Source of the DNA: Escherichia coli
Lineage (GTDB): Bacteria; Pseudomonadota; Gammaproteobacteria; Enterobacterales; Enterobacteriaceae
Assembly (NCBI RefSeq): GCF_051903065.1
Contig: NZ_CP178438.1
Reading direction: 5' to 3' (one strand)
DNA: 64,000 nt
Both the position numbers and the translations under genes were made by a program. The first letter of the stretch is position 1. Every line of letters begins with the position of its first letter. Below are positions 2,511-45,123 of the stretch, piece by piece. A model generated the notes under the pieces. The model had not been told where the DNA came from and did no database searches. It worked only from the letters and a program-made list of their open reading frames with translations.

Positions 2511-4178
2511 ATGCTGAGAACTTTTACAGGACAAAATTATAAAGCATACGAAAGCTTTAAGTTAGATTTAAAGCCATTGACAATATTGTTAGGTGCAAAT
2601 AGTTGTGGAAAAAGTGCACTAATTAACTCTTTGTTGATGTTTTCTCAGACAGTTGATTCAATGTCATTGTCTGACTCTGCTCTACGGCTGAATGGACCTA
2701 AAGTGGGAATGGGGGAAGCATTAAATATTATAAAAAATAAAGATGACTCCAAAACACTTAACTTTAGCTTTGATTTTTCTGATAATAGCGTAGTTAAAAA
2801 TGGCATTGATACTCTGAGAAGAGAAACTTTAGAATCATTTGCTATGATTATGCGATTCACTATACAGACAGTAAAAAATAATGATGAGTTGGTCGCGAAG
2901 GCCAATAATTTGATAAATGAATCTTTGAATGCTATTGTTAATTTTGATGAGTTTGAGGAGGCTAAATTAAATATTATTGCTGATAAATTGTGCCAGTTGA
3001 TTATGCTTTTTAGAGATGCTGGCAATAATATTATGTTTAGCCGGGCTACCTCAGAAAACTTACGCAGATTTATATATGAATGCCCATTGAAGAGAATCAA
3101 AGATTGCCTAACTAAAGTTGTTTCTATTTCAGGAAATAAATTGTCTGCATCTAAAATAAGTTATGACTTCAGATATGATAAAAATAAAGGTGTGGTAAAG
3201 GTTTCGAGATTTGTTCTTCTAAATAAGAATGATGAAAGAATAGTTGAACTGTTACCCAAAAAGAATAATGTCGTTGTATTGTCGGATGTTATCCCTCAAG
3301 AAGTATTTAGAGGATGTAAGTCTGATATCTTAGAAATCATGAATCCTTATTCTTTGGGGCTATTCCCTGTCAATGAAGGACGTGGTTTTTATGTTTTTTT
3401 TGGAAATTCCTACAACCCTGTTGTTAACTTTTTGTCACATGTTGTTTCTCTGGGAGTATTAATGCTTTCAAAAATGTTTGATGGCGAAAATGTTAATCAT
3501 GTCAGCCCGTTGAGGGCATTTCCTCAGCGTTATTATTTATTAGATAAAACAGTCAATCATGCTCAGTTAAATTCTGCTGATGGCTCTGAGTTGGCGGAGA
3601 TTCTGAAGAAAAATACAAAAATAACAGAAAACATAAACCTTCTTCTCGCTGAATTTAACTTAGCGGTTGATATAGTTAGAGTTAATGACATAATTCATAA
3701 GATAGTTATAAACCAAGATGCTGTTAATTTAGAATTGACAGATGTAGGGTTTGGAATATCACAAGTGTTGCCTGTCTTGGTTCAAGCTTATTTGTCACCA
3801 AAGGGCTCGATTACAATAATAGAACAACCAGAAATACATTTGCATCCTAAAATGCAGGCATGGTTAACTGACGCATTAATTAAAATATCTATGCAAGAAA
3901 AGAAAATTTTTATTATTGAAACACATAGTGATGCATTAGTTAGACGGATTAGATTAAGAATTGTTGATGAATCAAGCGAACTTACTGAGGACCATGTGGC
4001 AATCTATCATCTTGAGCGAGATGAAGAGGGAACATCAACCTTACTAAATAGAGTGGCTGTGAATTCTGATGGAGATATCACATGGCCAAATGAGTTTATG
4101 GATGTTGAGATTCAGGATACAATTAGAATACAGGAATTAAAGATACAAAAAATAATGAACTCAAAGGGAGTTCATTGA
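2511..4178 (+). CDS. ABC/OLD-type (AAA_15/AAA_21-like) ATPase, cargo gene 1 of A-Q hotspot; candidate defence ATPase (AriA/AbiLi/PtuA-like)
   Basis: 555 aa; Walker A GANSCGKS near N-terminus; Walker B/D-loop-like IIEQPEIHLHP and H-loop-like ETHSD near C-terminus with ~400-aa insertion between; very AT-rich; strong RBS AGGAG upstream. Confidence 0.75.
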   Translation: MLRTFTGQNYKAYESFKLDLKPLTILLGANSCGKSALINSLLMFSQTVDSMSLSDSALRLNGPKVGMGEALNIIKNKDDSKTLNFSFDFSDNSVVKNGIDTLRRETLESFAMIMRFTIQTVKNNDELVAKANNLINESLNAIVNFDEFEEAKLNIIADKLCQLIMLFRDAGNNIMFSRATSENLRRFIYECPLKRIKDCLTKVVSISGNKLSASKISYDFRYDKNKGVVKVSRFVLLNKNDERIVELLPKKNNVVVLSDVIPQEVFRGCKSDILEIMNPYSLGLFPVNEGRGFYVFFGNSYNPVVNFLSHVVSLGVLMLSKMFDGENVNHVSPLRAFPQRYYLLDKTVNHAQLNSADGSELAEILKKNTKITENINLLLAEFNLAVDIVRVNDIIHKIVINQDAVNLELTDVGFGISQVLPVLVQAYLSPKGSITIIEQPEIHLHPKMQAWLTDALIKISMQEKKIFIIETHSDALVRRIRLRIVDESSELTEDHVAIYHLERDEEGTSTLLNRVAVNSDGDITWPNEFMDVEIQDTIRIQELKIQKIMNSKGVH

Positions 4179-4179
4179 T

Positions 4180-5181
4180 ATGCTTTGTGCTGTTTGTTTG
4201 TGTCCTGAATTTGTTGCTGCTAATATTTCTGATGTTAAAGTTTTTAGCGGTTTTTTTATTGAAACCATTGTTAATGGTGAAAATGAGTTGATTCTTGATG
4301 CTGATGGAAAAATTCGCTTAGGTTATTTAAAGTCTTGCGGAAACAACAAGGATTCTTTTTTGTTTTTTAAGAAGTGGGAGTCTGAGTTATCTAAAGCTCC
4401 TTCAGGCAAGATATTGCGTACACCAGTGCCGAATAGTTCTGAGGATATTAAGGATATAGTTGTTTGTGCAGTTGCTAATGCAGCCACTACTTTTGATAAG
4501 CATATCGTAGTGTTAGATAATAATAGTTACTCTGGATATATTGATGAATTAATCAGGCAAAGGATTAATTTGTTAAATCTTAATAGTATAAGCTTAATAT
4601 CAAAGGATGGTCGAGTGCAGCGTCCTTTGAATTTTATAAAGTTTGATAGTGATTTATCTTGGGTGCTTCAAAGATTGGGGCGTCGCTCTGCTAAAGGATA
4701 TGGTGAAGATGATTTTAATGATTTTATACGGGATATGTTATTAGCTAAGAATTATGAGGTAAAAGATCAAACTAGAGAGGGAGAGTCTCAATCTGGTAAA
4801 AGTGCGGGTGAATTAGATCTTGTTATTGAAGATAAAGGAAATCTATTTGCTATAATAGAAGCATTGATTTTAAAATCTCTAGATCAAGCTAACATATTAA
4901 AGCATTATTCAAAGCTAATTAGTAACTATAATCCTATTAATGTTAAACGCTTGTTTTTAATTGCTTATTATACTGGTGCAAAATTTGATGCTTGGTGTGA
5001 GAGATACATTGATTATCTAAAAGAGATTACTCCGGTAGATATTGGTGTAGAATCTCATGAGATAGTTGGGATTAAAGAAGTGGAGACTCCATATATAGGT
5101 TTGAGAAAAATTGAACATCATTTTAGATATGCGGGAGAACATTATTTTTGTGTTCATTATGCAGTCAAGATGGCTCGGTGA
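4180..5181 (+). CDS. Partner protein of hotspot ATPase, putative nuclease effector (PD-(D/E)xK-like or TOPRIM/DUF4435-like)
   Basis: 333 aa; ATG 1 nt after upstream TGA (translational coupling); motifs GELDLVIEDKG (D-x3-E-x-K) and IETIV..LDADG (E...DxD); AT-rich. Confidence 0.6.
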   Translation: MLCAVCLCPEFVAANISDVKVFSGFFIETIVNGENELILDADGKIRLGYLKSCGNNKDSFLFFKKWESELSKAPSGKILRTPVPNSSEDIKDIVVCAVANAATTFDKHIVVLDNNSYSGYIDELIRQRINLLNLNSISLISKDGRVQRPLNFIKFDSDLSWVLQRLGRRSAKGYGEDDFNDFIRDMLLAKNYEVKDQTREGESQSGKSAGELDLVIEDKGNLFAIIEALILKSLDQANILKHYSKLISNYNPINVKRLFLIAYYTGAKFDAWCERYIDYLKEITPVDIGVESHEIVGIKEVETPYIGLRKIEHHFRYAGEHYFCVHYAVKMAR

Positions 5182-5506: not shown

Positions 5507-6541
5507 TCAGCCGTTGTCAGTGTCCAGTGAGTAGTTTTTAAATCGGATGACCTCCTGACCGAGCCAGCCGTTTATCTCGCGGATCCTGTCCTGTAACGGG
5601 ATAAGCTCATTGCGGACAAAGACCTTTGCTACTTTCTCAATATCGCCCAGCGACCCGACGTTCTCCGGCTTGCCGCCCATCAACTGAAAGGGGATGCGGT
5701 GCGCGTCCAGCAGGTCTGCGGCACTGGCTTTTTTGATATTAAAAAAATCGTCCTTCGTCGCCACTTCACTGAGCGGGATAATTTTAATGCCGTCGGCTTT
5801 TCCCTGCGGGGCATAGAGAAACAGGTTTTTAAAGTTGTTGCGGCCTTTCGACTTCACCATGTTTTCGCGAAGCATTTCGATATCGTTGCGATCCTGCACG
5901 GCATCCGTGACGTACATGATGTATCCGGCATGTGCGCCGTTTTCGTAATACTTGCGGCGGAACAGAGTGGCCGACTCATTCAGCCAGGCAGAGTTAAGGG
6001 CGCTGAGATATTCCGGCAGGCCGTACAGCTCCTGATTAATATCCGGCTCCAGCAGGTGAAACACGGAGCCGGGCGCGAAAGGTGTCGGCTCGTTGAAGGA
6101 CGGCACCCACCAGTAAACATCCTCTTCCACGCCACGGCGGGTATATTTTGCCGGTGAGGTTTCCAGTCTGATGACCTTACCGGTGGTGCTGTAACGCTTT
6201 TCCAGAAACGCATTGCCGAACACCAGAAAATCCAGCACAAAGCGGCTGAAATCCTGCTGGGAAAGCCACGGGTGCGGAATAAACGTTGAAGCCAGAATAT
6301 TACGTTTGACGTAAATCGGTGAGCTGTGATGTACGGCAGCACGCAGGCTTTTTGCCAGACCGGTAAAGCTGACCGGTGGCTCATACCATCTGCCGTTACT
6401 GATGCACTCGACGTAATCCAGAATGTCACGGCGGTCGAGTACCGGCACCGGTTCACCAAAGGTGAATGCCTCCATTTTCGGGGCGCTGGCGGTCATTTTT
6501 TTTGCCGCTAGTCGCGGTGTTTTCCCTTTTTTCTTGCTCAT
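5507..6541 (-). CDS. Q: Portal protein gpQ
   Basis: 344 aa, size and sequence character of P2 Q; overlaps start of P; conserved position next to cos. Confidence 0.9.
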   Translation of the reverse strand: MSKKKGKTPRLAAKKMTASAPKMEAFTFGEPVPVLDRRDILDYVECISNGRWYEPPVSFTGLAKSLRAAVHHSSPIYVKRNILASTFIPHPWLSQQDFSRFVLDFLVFGNAFLEKRYSTTGKVIRLETSPAKYTRRGVEEDVYWWVPSFNEPTPFAPGSVFHLLEPDINQELYGLPEYLSALNSAWLNESATLFRRKYYENGAHAGYIMYVTDAVQDRNDIEMLRENMVKSKGRNNFKNLFLYAPQGKADGIKIIPLSEVATKDDFFNIKKASAADLLDAHRIPFQLMGGKPENVGSLGDIEKVAKVFVRNELIPLQDRIREINGWLGQEVIRFKNYSLDTDNG

Positions 6542-20526: not shown

Positions 20527-21480
20527 ATGGATATACATGCAAAAAGAGTTGGCAGTCCACTTTATAAAATTATTATGTACTTAAATAAGTATGAAGAAGA
20601 TACACTGGAAGACATAAAACTTCAGTTTCTTTTAAAAAATTTAAAAACTCATTTCAAGAAACTGTTTTATATGATTACTTACATTAATAAAATTCAAAAA
20701 GATGCTGAGTTCATCAGAAAACATGATGCAACATCAATTGTCAGCATTAGTGCTATTGAGTATTGCTATTATAAAATCAGCACGATATGGGATATTGCAT
20801 ATCAGATAGCTGATAAATTAATTTTCCCAACTAAAAAAAATGGCAATAAATATGATTACCTTGAAAATCATTTCCAGCAATATGCACAGGAATTTCCAGA
20901 TTTGAATTTAAAATGGTATAAGGACTTTAATAAAATAAGAAATAAGATAGTTCATGGAGGGATAACAGTAAATCCTTATTATGTCAACGATGATAATATT
21001 AAAACAAAGATTTGTTTCCAAGCATATGACTCTGATCTAAACGATCTGATTCAACCTCATATGATGTATTCAAATAGATTCAATAACAATATTAATTTTG
21101 CTGATTACTATTTTACCTTTTATACTCATCTTCTCTATTCATATCTTTTTGATTTTTTTGATTTTGTACTTCTTGAGCTAAACAAAGATAAATCACATGA
21201 TTTAGACAATCTTATTCTTGATGATATACCGCACAAATTGTTTGGTGCTCATCATGAAACATGGTTGTTATCTGATGTTGATCAATTTATGAAAATTACA
21301 AGAGAAATGATTTCCCTACAAATAGCTGATGGTTGTTTAAATAAAATTGAGAAAATACCCTCAAGTGATATTGAACATTTTTTTAACAACTTTCCATTTT
21401 GTCTTATGACAAAGGTTAGCTCCGGAGATTGGGTATTGGTTGAGGATAAAGCGGCTGAAACAAAGTCATCGGACACTTAA
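20527..21480 (+). CDS. HEPN-motif (Rx4H) protein, Abi-like candidate, cargo in the G-FI (Z/fun) hotspot
   Basis: 317 aa; very AT-rich, Lys/Asn/Tyr/Phe-rich; motif RNKIVHGG (R-x4-H); own promoter-like elements. Confidence 0.55.
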   Translation: MDIHAKRVGSPLYKIIMYLNKYEEDTLEDIKLQFLLKNLKTHFKKLFYMITYINKIQKDAEFIRKHDATSIVSISAIEYCYYKISTIWDIAYQIADKLIFPTKKNGNKYDYLENHFQQYAQEFPDLNLKWYKDFNKIRNKIVHGGITVNPYYVNDDNIKTKICFQAYDSDLNDLIQPHMMYSNRFNNNINFADYYFTFYTHLLYSYLFDFFDFVLLELNKDKSHDLDNLILDDIPHKLFGAHHETWLLSDVDQFMKITREMISLQIADGCLNKIEKIPSSDIEHFFNNFPFCLMTKVSSGDWVLVEDKAAETKSSDT

Positions 21481-21774
21481 ATTTTTTTTGTGCCAAAGTC
21501 TACTCCTCGCTCGTCACAGGCTTTGGCATTCGTTTCAACAACCAAGTGATAGCATATATTGTGACCTGCACCCCGTTGATTCATACATCCTCGATGTAAG
21601 CAATCCCTTGAGAACGTCCACTCCTCGCTCTTAGCAGATCACACGGTTCTTCAAACGATCCGCTTCGTACCAGAAACGAACTTTTATCTCAAATTTGAAC
21701 CTTTTAGTGGATGACGACGTTTGTGTCTTCAAGTAGTCTTAAAAGCATGCGGATAGTGCATAGGAAAAGCAGAA

Positions 21775-22611
21775 GTGATCGATGACCCACTACCAGAAAA
21801 CTGGCAAGACCTCCAGACAGGGGTCCAACGTATATTCCGTAATGTTGGCTTGTTTGCAGAAGTCGAGGTCGATTTAGAAACCCCGCGTGGCTCGGTGAAT
21901 GTGGATGTTCTTGCTACAGATGTTAGGAGCGTGGACAAAATCAGATACATTGTGGAATGCAAAAACTGGGGTAGTTCTATACCACAGACGGTGGTCCATT
22001 CGTTCACCACGGTAATGCATGAAACCGGGGCTAATATTGGATTTATTATTTCAAAGCACGGGCTTCAGCAGGGTGCTAAACAGTACACTCAAAACACCAA
22101 TATTATTGGGATGACATACCTTGAGTTCCAAAAAAGGTATTTTGAGGCTTGGTGGAATAGATACTTTTGTCCACGTATCGGTGATGCTGCAGACGAACCG
22201 CTTCAGTACGTCGAACCAATCAACTCTAAACGAGATCGCGAATACGCCAAGCTAAGCCTTCAAGCACAAGAGAAGTTCGATCAGTTAAGGCAAGAGAAAG
22301 GTGTATCAGTAGTGGTTCTCTCTATGCTCAATTACAAGTTTATGTCGAAAGCATTAAACACTGGTAACTTGCTGGAAGTCCCAAATAATCTGGATGATTT
22401 TAAGAACAGAGTTCTCTCCCGAATATGTCCTCACATTGAATGGCATTGTGATACGTACAGAGAGCTGCTAGAGCTCATCTTGCAATACTTATCAGTCACA
22501 AAAGCAGAGTTTGATGCAATATTTGGTCGGGCCATCTTTGAACCGCCAAGTAGTATCACGGGGGTTACGGCTGAAGGTCCCCCTTTAGACGATGGTATTT
22601 ATCATCATTAG
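21775..22611 (+). CDS. PD-(D/E)xK restriction-endonuclease-like (Mrr_cat-like) protein, cargo in the G-FI hotspot
   Basis: 278 aa, GTG start; N-terminal VNVDVLATD ... YIVECKNW (D ... E-x-K nuclease signature). Confidence 0.55.
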   Translation: MIDDPLPENWQDLQTGVQRIFRNVGLFAEVEVDLETPRGSVNVDVLATDVRSVDKIRYIVECKNWGSSIPQTVVHSFTTVMHETGANIGFIISKHGLQQGAKQYTQNTNIIGMTYLEFQKRYFEAWWNRYFCPRIGDAADEPLQYVEPINSKRDREYAKLSLQAQEKFDQLRQEKGVSVVVLSMLNYKFMSKALNTGNLLEVPNNLDDFKNRVLSRICPHIEWHCDTYRELLELILQYLSVTKAEFDAIFGRAIFEPPSSITGVTAEGPPLDDGIYHH

Positions 22612-29157: not shown

Positions 29158-29238
29158 TGTTTTTATTTTATCTGTTTGTTTTATAAGGATAAATTAACTA
29201 AAATGGCACCATCAACAAAACCGGAAGAGGTGCTCGCG

Positions 29239-29457
29239 ATGTTTCATTGTCCTTTATGCCAGCATGCCGCACATGCGCGTACAAGCCGCTATATCACTGA
29301 CACGACAAAAGAGCGTTATCACCAGTGTCAGAACGTGAATTGCAGCGCCACATTCATCACTTATGAGTCGGTACAGCGATACATCGTGAAGCCGGGAGAA
29401 GTCCACGCCGTAAGACCGCACCCGTTGCCGTCAGGGCAGCAAATTATGTGGATGTAA
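29239..29457 (+). CDS. ogr: Late transcription activator Ogr (zinc finger)
   Basis: 72 aa from MFHCPLCQH; Cys pairs CPLC ... CQNVNC; ORF track's longer upstream start not used. Confidence 0.85.
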   Translation: MFHCPLCQHAAHARTSRYITDTTKERYHQCQNVNCSATFITYESVQRYIVKPGEVHAVRPHPLPSGQQIMWM

Positions 29458-29465
29458 TTACAAAC

Positions 29466-29496: not shown

Positions 29497-29695
29497 CGAT
29501 GTGGTCAATGTGTGGACGTGACCAGAAATAAATCCTTTTATTTCATGTGATTAGATATCAAAAAATGTCACCAATAACTGACATTGCGGTGTTTCTCCAG
29601 ATGTGGCCCATCTGAGGCCGTGTTGGTGCGCAGCTCGAAGGCTACGTCGAGTCTGTTTTGGCAGTCACCTTAAAGTATAGATAGCTGACAAAAAA

Positions 29696-42668: not shown

Positions 42669-42822
42669 TTTCTCTAATCAGGAACTGGAAGCTGCCTCGC
42701 AGAGTTTTGAGCAGTTTTCACCCTTTCGTTAAATTCTTCTGAATGTGCCTCGGGGAACGCAAAATTCCCACCAGACAACCGCTCAACAAAGTTGCACACT
42801 TTCCATAAACAGGGAGGGGTGC

Positions 42823-45087
42823 ATGAAAATAACGACAGTCGGCGTATGCATAATTTGCGGAATTTTTCCGTTGCTGATTTTGCCCCAATTGCCTGGGACA
42901 TTAACCCTTGCGTTTCTGACTCTCTTCGCCTGCGTACTGGCATTTATCCCTGTTAAAACCGTCCGTTATATCGCGCTGACGTTGCTGTTTTTCGTTTGGG
43001 GCATATTATCAGCAAAGCAAATTTTGTTGGCAGGAGAAACCTTAACTGGCGCGACGCAGGATGCAATTGTTGAGATCACTGCTACTGACGGCATGACCAC
43101 TCATTACGGTCAAATTACTTATCTACAAGGTCGACGTATATTCCCTGCGCCAGGCCTTGTGCTGTATGGCGAATATCTTCCGCAAGCGGTTTGTGCCGGA
43201 CAACTGTGGTCAATGAAACTCAAAGTTCGTGCCGTTCATGGTCAACTTAATGATGGCGGCTTTGATAGCCAGCGTTATGCCATTGCCCAGCATCAGCCGC
43301 TCACCGGCCGCTTTCTGCAGGCAAGTGTTATTGAACCGAATTGTAGCCTGCGTGCACAGTATCTGGCGTCACTACAAACAACGCTGCAACCCTATCCGTG
43401 GAATGCGGTTATTCTTGGTTTAGGTATGGGGGAACGGTTATCCGTCCCTAAAGAAATCAAAAATATCATGCGTGATACTGGAACGGCGCATTTAATGGCG
43501 ATATCGGGATTGCACATCGCTTTTGCGGCGTTGCTGGCTGCCGGACTCATTCGCAGTGGACAAATTTTTCTGCCTGGGCGCTGGATCCACTGGCAAATGC
43601 CATTAATTGGCGGAATCTGCTGTGCTGCTTTTTATGCCTGGCTGACGGGAATGCAACCTCCTGCATTGCGTACCGTTGTGGCGCTTGCTACGTGGGGAAT
43701 GCTTAAGTTAAGTGGGCGACAGTGGAGTGGCTGGGATGTATGGATATGTTGTCTGGCGGCAATTTTGCTGATGGATCCTGTTGCCATTCTCTCGCAAAGT
43801 TTATGGCTCTCTGCCGCTGCGGTCGCGGCATTGATATTTTGGTATCAGTGGTTTCCCTGTCCTGAGTGGCAACTGCCGCCGGTATTGCGTGCAGTTGTTT
43901 CCCTCATTCATTTGCAACTGGGAATCACACTTCTGCTTATGCCCGTGCAAATCGTCATATTTCATGGCATTAGTCTGACCTCGTTTATTGCAAATCTATT
44001 AGCAATTCCCTTGGTGACATTTATCACGGTTCCGTTGATCCTCGCCGCGATGGTTGTGCATTTAAGCGGGCCGTTAATCCTGGAGCAAGGGTTATGGTTT
44101 CTTGCCGACCGGTCTTTGGCTTTACTTTTCTGGGGGTTAAAGAGTTTGCCAGAAGGGTGGATCAACATTGCTGAACGTTGACAATGGCTATCATTTTCCC
44201 CATGGTTCTTACTGGTGGTATGGCGATTAAACGCCTGGCGAACGTTGCCAGCAATGTGTGTGGCTGTAGGCTTGCTGATGTGCTGGCCGCTGTGGCAAAA
44301 ACCTCGACCTGACGAGTGGCAAGTGTACATGCTTGATGTCGGGCAAGGGCTGGCAATGGTGATAGCCAGAAACGGCAAAGCGATTCTCTATGACACGGGA
44401 CTGGCCTGGCCCGAAGGGGATAGTGGGCAACAACTGATTATCCCCTGGCTCCACTGGCATAATCTTGAACCGGAAGGCGTTATTCTGAGCCATGAACATC
44501 TGGATCACCGGGGAGGGCTGGACTCAATATTACACACATGGCCGATGTTATGGATCAGAAGTCCGTTAAACTGGGAACATCATCAGCCCTGTGTGCGTGG
44601 CGAAGTGTGGCAATGGCAAGGATTGCGTTTCAGCGCGCACTGGCCTTTACAAGGTAGCAACGATAAAGGAAATAACCATTCCTGTGTGGTTAAGGTTGAT
44701 GACGGGACGAATAGCATTCTTCTAACCGGTGATATTGAAGCCCCAGCTGAACAAAAGATGCTAAGCCGTTACTGGCAGCAAGTGCAGGCAACATTGCTTC
44801 AGGTACCTCACCATGGCAGTAATACCTCATCATCGTTGCCATTAATTCAGCGAGTGAATGGAAAAGTGGCACTCGCATCGGCATCGCGCTATAACGCATG
44901 GCGACTGCCCTCTAACAAAGTTAAGCATCGCTATCAACAACAAGGTTATACGTGGCTTGATACTCCTCATCAGGGGCAAGTAACGGTCGATTTTTCAGCG
45001 CAAGGCTGGCGGATTAGCAGCCTCAGGGAGCAAATTTTACCTCGTTGGTATCATCAGTGGTTTGGCGTGCCAGTGGATAACGGGTAG
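42823..45087 (+). pseudogene. ycaI: ComEC/Rec2-family inner membrane protein YcaI, interrupted by an in-frame TGA at 44179-44181
   Basis: ORFs 42745..44181 and 44215..45087 are in the same frame, separated only by one TGA; total span from MKITTVG is 755 codons; C-terminal part has metallo-beta-lactamase motif HEHLDHRGG. Confidence 0.7.
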
Positions 45088-45123
45088 AATATGCGGCTAT
45101 TTCAACAAATGCTGGTTTTTTGA

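Follow-up and report, generated by a model that had tools for sequence, protein, structure and literature searches.

The ycaI locus and its internal stop codon

The window, meaning the whole 64,000-nucleotide stretch of Escherichia coli DNA that was analysed, carries the genes rpsA-ihfB-ycaI-msbA-lpxK in the standard E. coli arrangement. Within this series, ycaI, a gene of the ComEC/Rec2 family, is interrupted by one premature stop codon. The features relevant to this interruption are as follows.

42823..45087, plus strand: pseudogene ycaI of the ComEC/Rec2 family, with 754 codons, a terminal TAG and one interruption; coordinates are those of the PGAP feature in strain 23CRST027
42823..44178, plus strand: truncated ORF that is translated, 452 aa (product P0001), with the OB-fold (DUF4131) and the greater part of the Competence transmembrane domain; NF008580 profile positions 3-455
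44179..44181, plus strand: premature stop TGA at codon 453, ancestral TGG (Trp), next base C (TGA-C)
44181..44181, plus strand: mutated base, a G>A transition at gene nucleotide 1359, third base of the Trp codon, identified by allele comparison
44182..45084, plus strand: rest of the frame, 301 codons, not reached by translation from the ycaI start; Pfam Lactamase_B, NCBIfam profile positions 469-758
44215 (GTG, codon 465), 44254 (ATG) and 44278 (ATG, codon 486), plus strand: in-frame restart candidates
44491..44508, plus strand: HEHLDH (HxHxDH) metal-binding motif of the MBL (metallo-beta-lactamase) domain, residues 557-562, 3' of the stop
44532..44532, plus strand: sub-lineage substitution G>A, TTG>TTA, L570L (synonymous), downstream of the stop
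44606..44606, plus strand: sub-lineage substitution C>T, GCG>GTG, A595V, downstream of the stop; present in the 269-aa ORF product P0016
45124..46872, plus strand: msbA (essential lipid A flippase), intact, starting 942 nt past the premature stop

The original prediction was that a single in-frame TGA splits the host ycaI into two ORFs, and this is true, with codon 453 being the sole internal stop. The reading around it is ...ATT GCT GAA CGT TGA CAA TGG CTA TCA..., where TGA occupies 44179-44181. From MKITTVG to the end, the span comprises 755 codons including the terminal stop (2265 nt), which matches the full-length gene as had been expected. The two ORFs proposed at 42745..44181 and 44215..45087 do share one reading frame, but their limits require adjustment. 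The annotated start is the ATG at 42823 rather than the GTG at 42745, and the frame is open from 44182 onwards, with 44215 representing only its first in-frame GTG. The assignment to the ComEC family is also borne out, as the halves jointly cover one 754-aa protein of that family (NCBIfam NF008580, profile positions 3-455 and 469-758). Since this coverage runs from end to end, chance is not an issue.

The base change and the ancestral state

The nearest intact alleles, those of strains D8 (Panama) and DSM 103246 (Germany), which encode WP_000705688.1, differ from the window allele at 3 nt over 2265 nt, and position 44181 is among these three differences. The K-12 W3110 allele lies 50 nt away. 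All of the compared ycaI alleles are 2265 nt long and free of indels, and codon 453 is TGG (Trp) in D8, DSM 103246, K-12 W3110 and E2865. A sense codon is thus found in close relatives, while the rest of the gene is collinear and of equal length, which is the pattern of a pseudogene created by a nonsense change. Of the two replaced codons that had been considered, TGG and CGA, K-12 and the nearest intact alleles have the former, and the suspected nonsense point mutation can be specified as TGG (Trp453) to TGA, G>A at 44181.

As to a mutational hotspot created by sequence context, inspection places position 44181 in neither a Dcm (CCWGG) nor a Dam (GATC) site. An origin by template switching was also considered and is not supported, likewise by inspection, because the G>A change weakens a 6-bp inverted repeat (CATTGC...GCAATG) instead of perfecting it.

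Distribution of the stop codon among E. coli genomes

Carriers were sought with a 55-mer query in which the mutated base stands at position 28, so that each 28-nt megablast seed must include that base. With this seed-forced query, the A allele was found in 4 of 5,426 complete E. coli genomes. A 2.5-kb query spanning ycaI matches 5,425 of the same 5,426 genomes, and codon 453 is TGG in 5,421 of the 5,425 that have the locus. Two of the carriers, 23CRST027 and 23CRST031, come from human faeces in Ecuador and have a ycaI identical to that of the window; ECNB21-M121, from meat in China, differs from it by 2 nt; Z1323CEC0019 was obtained from chicken in South Korea. PGAP labels ycaI in all four as a pseudogene with an 'internal stop', and the pseudogenes AC6IZ1_RS06310 (23CRST027) and LA372_RS14695 (ECNB21-M121) have the same TGA and the same neighbours as in the window. 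The W453* allele is therefore already known and ordinary, as RefSeq/PGAP annotates the identical allele as a pseudogene.

In wider public collections, the exact 452-aa truncated product is encoded on 99 contigs, including independent assemblies of Illumina runs, and the exact 269-aa product of the downstream ORF, which carries A595V, on 23 contigs, compared with 527 contigs for the intact D8-type protein. Many 'partial' ycaI entries in the protein collection are contig-end artefacts. The TGA was verified base by base in GCA_949766195, SRR30333299, SRR21142187 and SRR33365938. Two carriers, ECNB21-M121 and GCA_949766195, have the TGA without L570L and A595V and differ from the D8/DSM 103246 allele at 44181 only. 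All three changes occur together in the window, 23CRST027, 23CRST031 and three SRR (Logan) assemblies.

These data bear directly on whether the stop could have been produced by a sequencing or assembly error in the window, an option that the original prediction had left standing. A single-base difference from an intact allele is the kind of change that an error could give, but four complete genomes, sequenced independently and originating from three countries, have the identical base, as do GCA_949766195 and at least four independent Logan run assemblies, and the TGA is nested in a lineage bearing further linked substitutions. An error is next to impossible under these circumstances. The term 'strain-specific' proves too narrow as well, because the 452-aa product on 99 contigs makes the stop a lineage marker. 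The W453* stop is real, heritable and lineage-wide, and it is not specific to one strain.

The window and 23CRST027 are not the same genome. Only 29564-50000 of the window is collinear with 23CRST027, with 3 mismatches in 20.4 kb, and the left 29.5 kb of the window holds a P2-like prophage at pflA. This prophage is absent at that site from 23CRST027, and the window must therefore derive from another strain that shares the ycaI allele.

Consequences for the YcaI protein

The intact allele encodes DUF4131 at residues 27-157 (E 1.8e-5), Competence at 201-467 (4e-53) and Lactamase_B at 505-686 (2e-23). The same three-domain ComEC/Rec2 architecture (PF13567 + PF03772 + PF00753) is encoded by the window DNA if it is read across the stop. 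Against NCBIfam NF008580, whose curated equivalog cut-off is 969, the intact allele scores 1313.9 bits, while the two pieces in the window reach 722.3 bits (profile 3-455) and 543.1 bits (469-758), both below the cut-off. Judged by the profiles NF008580 and TIGR00361, the window locus is ComEC by descent, yet no single predicted product qualifies as such. Intact YcaI proteins (K-12 WP_000705764.1; D8/DSM 103246 WP_000705688.1) correspond to it in locus, length and domains, but have the full 754 aa as opposed to 452 in the window.

The stop at codon 453 deletes 302 of 754 residues (40%). The lost part includes the C-terminal portion of Competence, the last hydrophobic segment (LPAMCVAVGLLMCWPLW) and, with HEHLDH, all of the metallo-beta-lactamase nuclease domain, which is periplasmic; the HxHxDH motif is present in the window DNA, but 3' of the premature stop. 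In Bacillus subtilis, the C-terminal MBL domain of ComEC is an extracellular Mn-dependent nuclease, and its inactivation severely inhibits transformation (PMC8579336). By inference from this domain content, the 452-aa product would be unable to carry out coupled strand degradation and would probably fall short of a complete channel. The solved ComEC/Rec2 structures PDB 9vc9, 9vcb and 9vcf (also 30bt, 9vc6 and 9ic4) are homologous to YcaI residues 62-747, with E = 8e-78 to 4e-75. They represent full-length proteins of other organisms, and the alignment takes in both the channel and the MBL domains. The 9vc9 alignment shows no conservation of YcaI Trp453, which indicates that the effect of W453* is truncation and not the loss of a key residue.

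Among intact ycaI alleles, dN/dS is 0.15-0.26. This indicates that intact ycaI is normally under purifying selection and that W453* is a true loss rather than drift of a gene already dead. The window allele has two further substitutions, both downstream of the stop (the synonymous L570L, and A595V) and none upstream, and this number is too small to show relaxed selection.

The most probable explanation

In the most probable history, a spontaneous G:C>A:T transition at 44181 changed the Trp codon 453 of the chromosomal ycaI from TGG to TGA, and the mutation has since been inherited vertically in one lineage of E. coli. Translation that begins at the ycaI start is predicted to halt after 452 residues, with the OB-fold and most of the channel kept, and ycaI would thereby have lost its function or, at best, persist as a severe hypomorph. 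This nonsense explanation is very probably correct. The truncated protein would be non-functional, its loss would be near-neutral, and productive re-initiation downstream is not expected.

Inactivation of ycaI was without effect on natural plasmid transformation (PMC6135910), and in one recent study a nonsense mutant of ycaI is reported to show reduced artificial transformation (PMC12844161). The terms ycaI and rec2 are absent from Sinha & Redfield 2012. As ycaI has a poorly defined role in E. coli, its loss of function is tied to no known phenotype.

Readthrough of the stop codon

Instead of abolishing YcaI, the TGA-C stop might be leaky, with near-cognate Trp-tRNA-Trp inserting the original Trp so that a small amount of wild-type YcaI retains function. 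The stop context is indeed TGA-C. Bacterial termination is inefficient when C occupies the +4 position, particularly at UGA, and tRNA-Trp misreads UGA (PMC5289835); in a K-12 BW25113 reporter, UGA readthrough was ~2% at 37 C and ~4% at 25 C, reflecting competition between Trp-tRNA-Trp and RF2 (PMC10570021). Both reports speak for the leaky stop, as does the occurrence of the same W453* on three allele backgrounds. As the ancestral residue is Trp, any readthrough by tRNA-Trp would restore wild-type YcaI.

Several observations weaken this reading nevertheless. C follows 22 of the 40 TGG codons of ycaI, which means that the context of codon 453 is not special. The Z1323CEC0019 allele contains a second stop, TAA at codon 224, that is not leaky in this way, and non-leaky nonsense alleles persist too, namely W529* as TAG and Q278* as TAA. 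The RF2 variant of K-12 terminates poorly and exaggerates UGA readthrough, and less of it is expected in natural isolates; the K-12 reporter figures thus probably overstate readthrough for natural isolates. A leaky stop that preserves function is, on balance, unlikely.

Its stronger form, in which W453* is a 'self-correcting' hypomorph whose readthrough regenerates wild-type YcaI at a low, condition-dependent level, is more doubtful still. If it were true, TGG>TGA changes would be the nonsense alleles likeliest to escape purifying selection, and W453* would be among the least harmful nonsense alleles possible, hence its persistence and recurrence. It would also explain the presence of W453* on three backgrounds and its spread to about 100 sequenced isolates.

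Recurrence of W453* and other nonsense alleles

W453* also occurs outside the lineage of the window. The ycaI allele of Z1323CEC0019 is 47 nt from that of the window. Compared with the widespread intact allele WP_000705700.1 (found, e.g., in E2865 and W2-5), it has exactly two differences, both nonsense: TTA>TAA at codon 224 (L224*) and TGG>TGA at codon 453. This W453* allele therefore holds a second stop. ERR12423038 (product P0015) represents a third background with TGA at codon 453, at distances of 44 nt to the window allele and 20 nt to that of Z1323CEC0019. The two other W453* alleles are thus ~2% divergent from that of the window. Because the 347-377 nt flanking codon 453 are invariant among the W453* alleles and offer no informative sites, independent mutation and short-tract recombination or gene conversion of one original event cannot be separated as sources of the three backgrounds.

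Other stops occur in the same gene. At least 469 contigs carry Q278* (CAA>TAA), as do 9 complete genomes, several or most of them O157:H7, and W529* is seen as both TGA and TAG, in different assemblies. Compared with W453*, Q278* cuts the protein earlier, within the channel domain, and W529* later, within the MBL domain. The Q278*, W529* and L224* + W453* alleles resemble that of the window in that each stop arises by a single-base nonsense change, the rest of the frame is intact and gene callers give two ORFs. A survey of E. coli strains distinguished three ComEC domain profiles, in 177, 13 and 9 strains (PMC6299819). The collected alleles indicate that ycaI decays repeatedly, by several independent nonsense alleles, in different E. 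coli lineages.

Such recurrence could be taken as a sign of adaptive convergent inactivation, in which some niches favour the loss of ComEC, or specifically its truncation at residue 453. The three allele backgrounds with W453*, 20-47 nt apart, would fit this idea, as would the fact that both differences of Z1323CEC0019 from its intact parent allele are nonsense and that the W453* carrier lineage is found on at least 99 contigs from several countries. On the other hand, carriers are rare (4 of 5,426 complete genomes), and purifying selection acts on intact ycaI alleles. There are 40 TGG codons in the intact gene (5.3% Trp), and its 6,786 possible single-base substitutions include 328 nonsense changes, 136 of them transitions; with so many routes, very large collections can be expected to contain some repeats. 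Trp codon 529 has likewise been mutated twice, and the short-tract transfer of one original W453* mutation, compatible with the invariant flanks, would yield the same distribution. Adaptive inactivation is accordingly very unlikely, and on present evidence the recurrence of W453* is not remarkable.

Restart downstream of the stop and recoding

A further alternative is a functional split gene, in which an N-terminal channel and a separately initiated C-terminal nuclease cooperate. The downstream frame stays open with its MBL motif intact, it offers an in-frame GTG at 44215, 36 nt past the stop, and gene callers place the start of a 269-aa Lactamase_B ORF at the ATG of 44278. However, the 20 nt before the GTG at 44215 (TTTCCCCATGGTTCTTACTG) contain no AGGAG-type Shine-Dalgarno sequence, and the ATG at 44278 lies inside the last hydrophobic segment (MCWPLW...), giving a product that would have neither a membrane anchor nor an export signal. 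These two properties make a working two-piece ComEC unlikely, the more so as the MBL domain acts outside the cytoplasm (the CTD is extracellular according to PMC8579336). Moreover, each fragment scores below the curated cut-off of the family, about one mutation separates the split from intact alleles, and 5,422 of 5,426 complete genomes do not have it. Cooperation between two separate products is highly improbable.

Programmed recoding at the TGA, either as selenocysteine or as regulated readthrough, can safely be dismissed: although the TGA is in-frame and inside a conserved reading frame, the 72 nt 3' of it contain no SECIS-type stem-loop and fold no better than shuffled sequences (MFE -16.4 kcal/mol vs shuffle mean -16.8, z = 0.13), no Rfam family matches 43900-44500 at E <= 1, the ancestral residue is Trp and not Cys, and the in-frame UGA is not conserved, being present in 4 of 5,426 complete genomes with TGG elsewhere, which in itself excludes selenocysteine or programmed recoding.

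Possible effects on msbA

Under the preferred reading of a truncating nonsense allele, the 942 nt left untranslated before the essential msbA could in principle give rise to Rho-dependent polarity. A sigma-70-like site is present at 45062-45090, just 5' of msbA, although it is weak, with a 9/12 match; it is the single match, promoter-like sites in total are below the shuffle expectation, and the result speaks neither for nor against an internal promoter for msbA.

Carriers of the stop are viable, and other lineages have earlier stops in ycaI.

Significance

For annotators, the two ORFs should be treated as one pseudogene with a genuine inherited stop, and the base is not to be 'fixed'. As a natural knock-down, the carrier lineage might help to study phenotypes that depend on ycaI, such as DNA uptake and the use of DNA as a nutrient. 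The finding is mildly relevant to the role of cryptic competence genes in E. coli and matters little overall. W453* constitutes one more documented allele in the repeated loss of the ComEC homologue in E. coli lineages, which takes place despite purifying selection on the intact alleles.

Nonsense alleles of ycaI

Another carrier of the W453* stop, the complete genome of Z1323CEC0019, harbors ycaI in the following position of locus L006:

1670-3934, ycaI of Z1323CEC0019

Relative to the common intact allele encoding WP_000705700.1, this gene differs at only two bases, and both differences create stops, namely L224* (TAA) and W453* (TGA). That two of two changes are nonsense is odd; the double stop could mean that an already inactivated gene was hit again, that selection was at work, or that assembly quality is at fault.

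Codon 452/453 is also the precise point at which two metagenome scaffolds (L013 and L014) stop. Because the scaffolds end there, their 452-aa 'products' are artefacts of the contig ends and do not prove a stop allele, and the breaks may reflect strain polymorphism at this codon within those samples.

Other lesions affect ycaI elsewhere. At the Trp codon 529, a stop is created by TGG>TGA in ERR13868084 and by TGG>TAG in a metagenome scaffold (loci L019 and L020), both leaving an identical truncated YcaI of 528 aa; these two hits are independent. When a 55-mer centred on W529* was used as the query, GF131 (H117) and EC19 (H118) were matched over just 50 record bases at 90.9% identity, which suggests a 5-nt deletion or a similar lesion around this codon. 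Another allele, Q278* (CAA>TAA at codon 278; locus L018 and genome matches H109-H116), splits the gene into ORFs of 277 and 462 aa, and the 462-aa product occurs in at least 469 contigs. This allele is found in 9 complete genomes, several of them labelled O157:H7, with one further match, in 2013C-4282, having a somewhat different local sequence.

The P2-like prophage at pflA and its cargo

The prophage and the genes discussed here occupy the following window positions:

1-29563, P2-like (Peduovirus) prophage, right junction about 29560-29586
1-2271, P2-type replication gene
2511-5181, + strand, two cargo ORFs between the replication and portal genes
5507-6541, - strand, portal gene
20527-22611, two more cargo ORFs (317 and 278 aa) between the tail-fibre assembly and tail sheath genes
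29204-29458, ogr

Phages R18C, HQ103 and P2 show about 97% identity to this prophage, their matches covering 74-79% of the initial 25 kb. Its right end adjoins the first five codons of pflA (MSVIG, then DIF*). The same arrangement is present in LD93-1, where the annotation gives the far-side pflA a length of 265 aa rather than 246, its N-terminus being phage-supplied (MSNLTNCNTTENTATAGATK-SVIGRIH...). A junction-spanning query is at least 80% covered in at least 196 complete genomes. The prophage is missing from the pflA site in 23CRST027, a carrier of the window's ycaI allele.

For the 317-aa and 278-aa pair, the sole PADLOC match is a weak one of the 278-aa ORF to PDC-S02 (3e-5); the LD93-1 equivalents are annotated as 'hypothetical protein' and 'restriction endonuclease'.

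The cargo at 2511-5181 lies at the position that old occupies in P2, a spot at which LD93-1 carries different cargo, a 2.2-kb AAA ATPase gene on the opposite strand. The 555-aa protein encoded in the window is itself an AAA ATPase with strong PADLOC matches to NsnB (2e-51), HEC-03B (5e-43), PDC-M55A (5e-41) and AriA (3e-28); its 333-aa partner has no PADLOC match. The two ORFs probably constitute an anti-phage defence pair.
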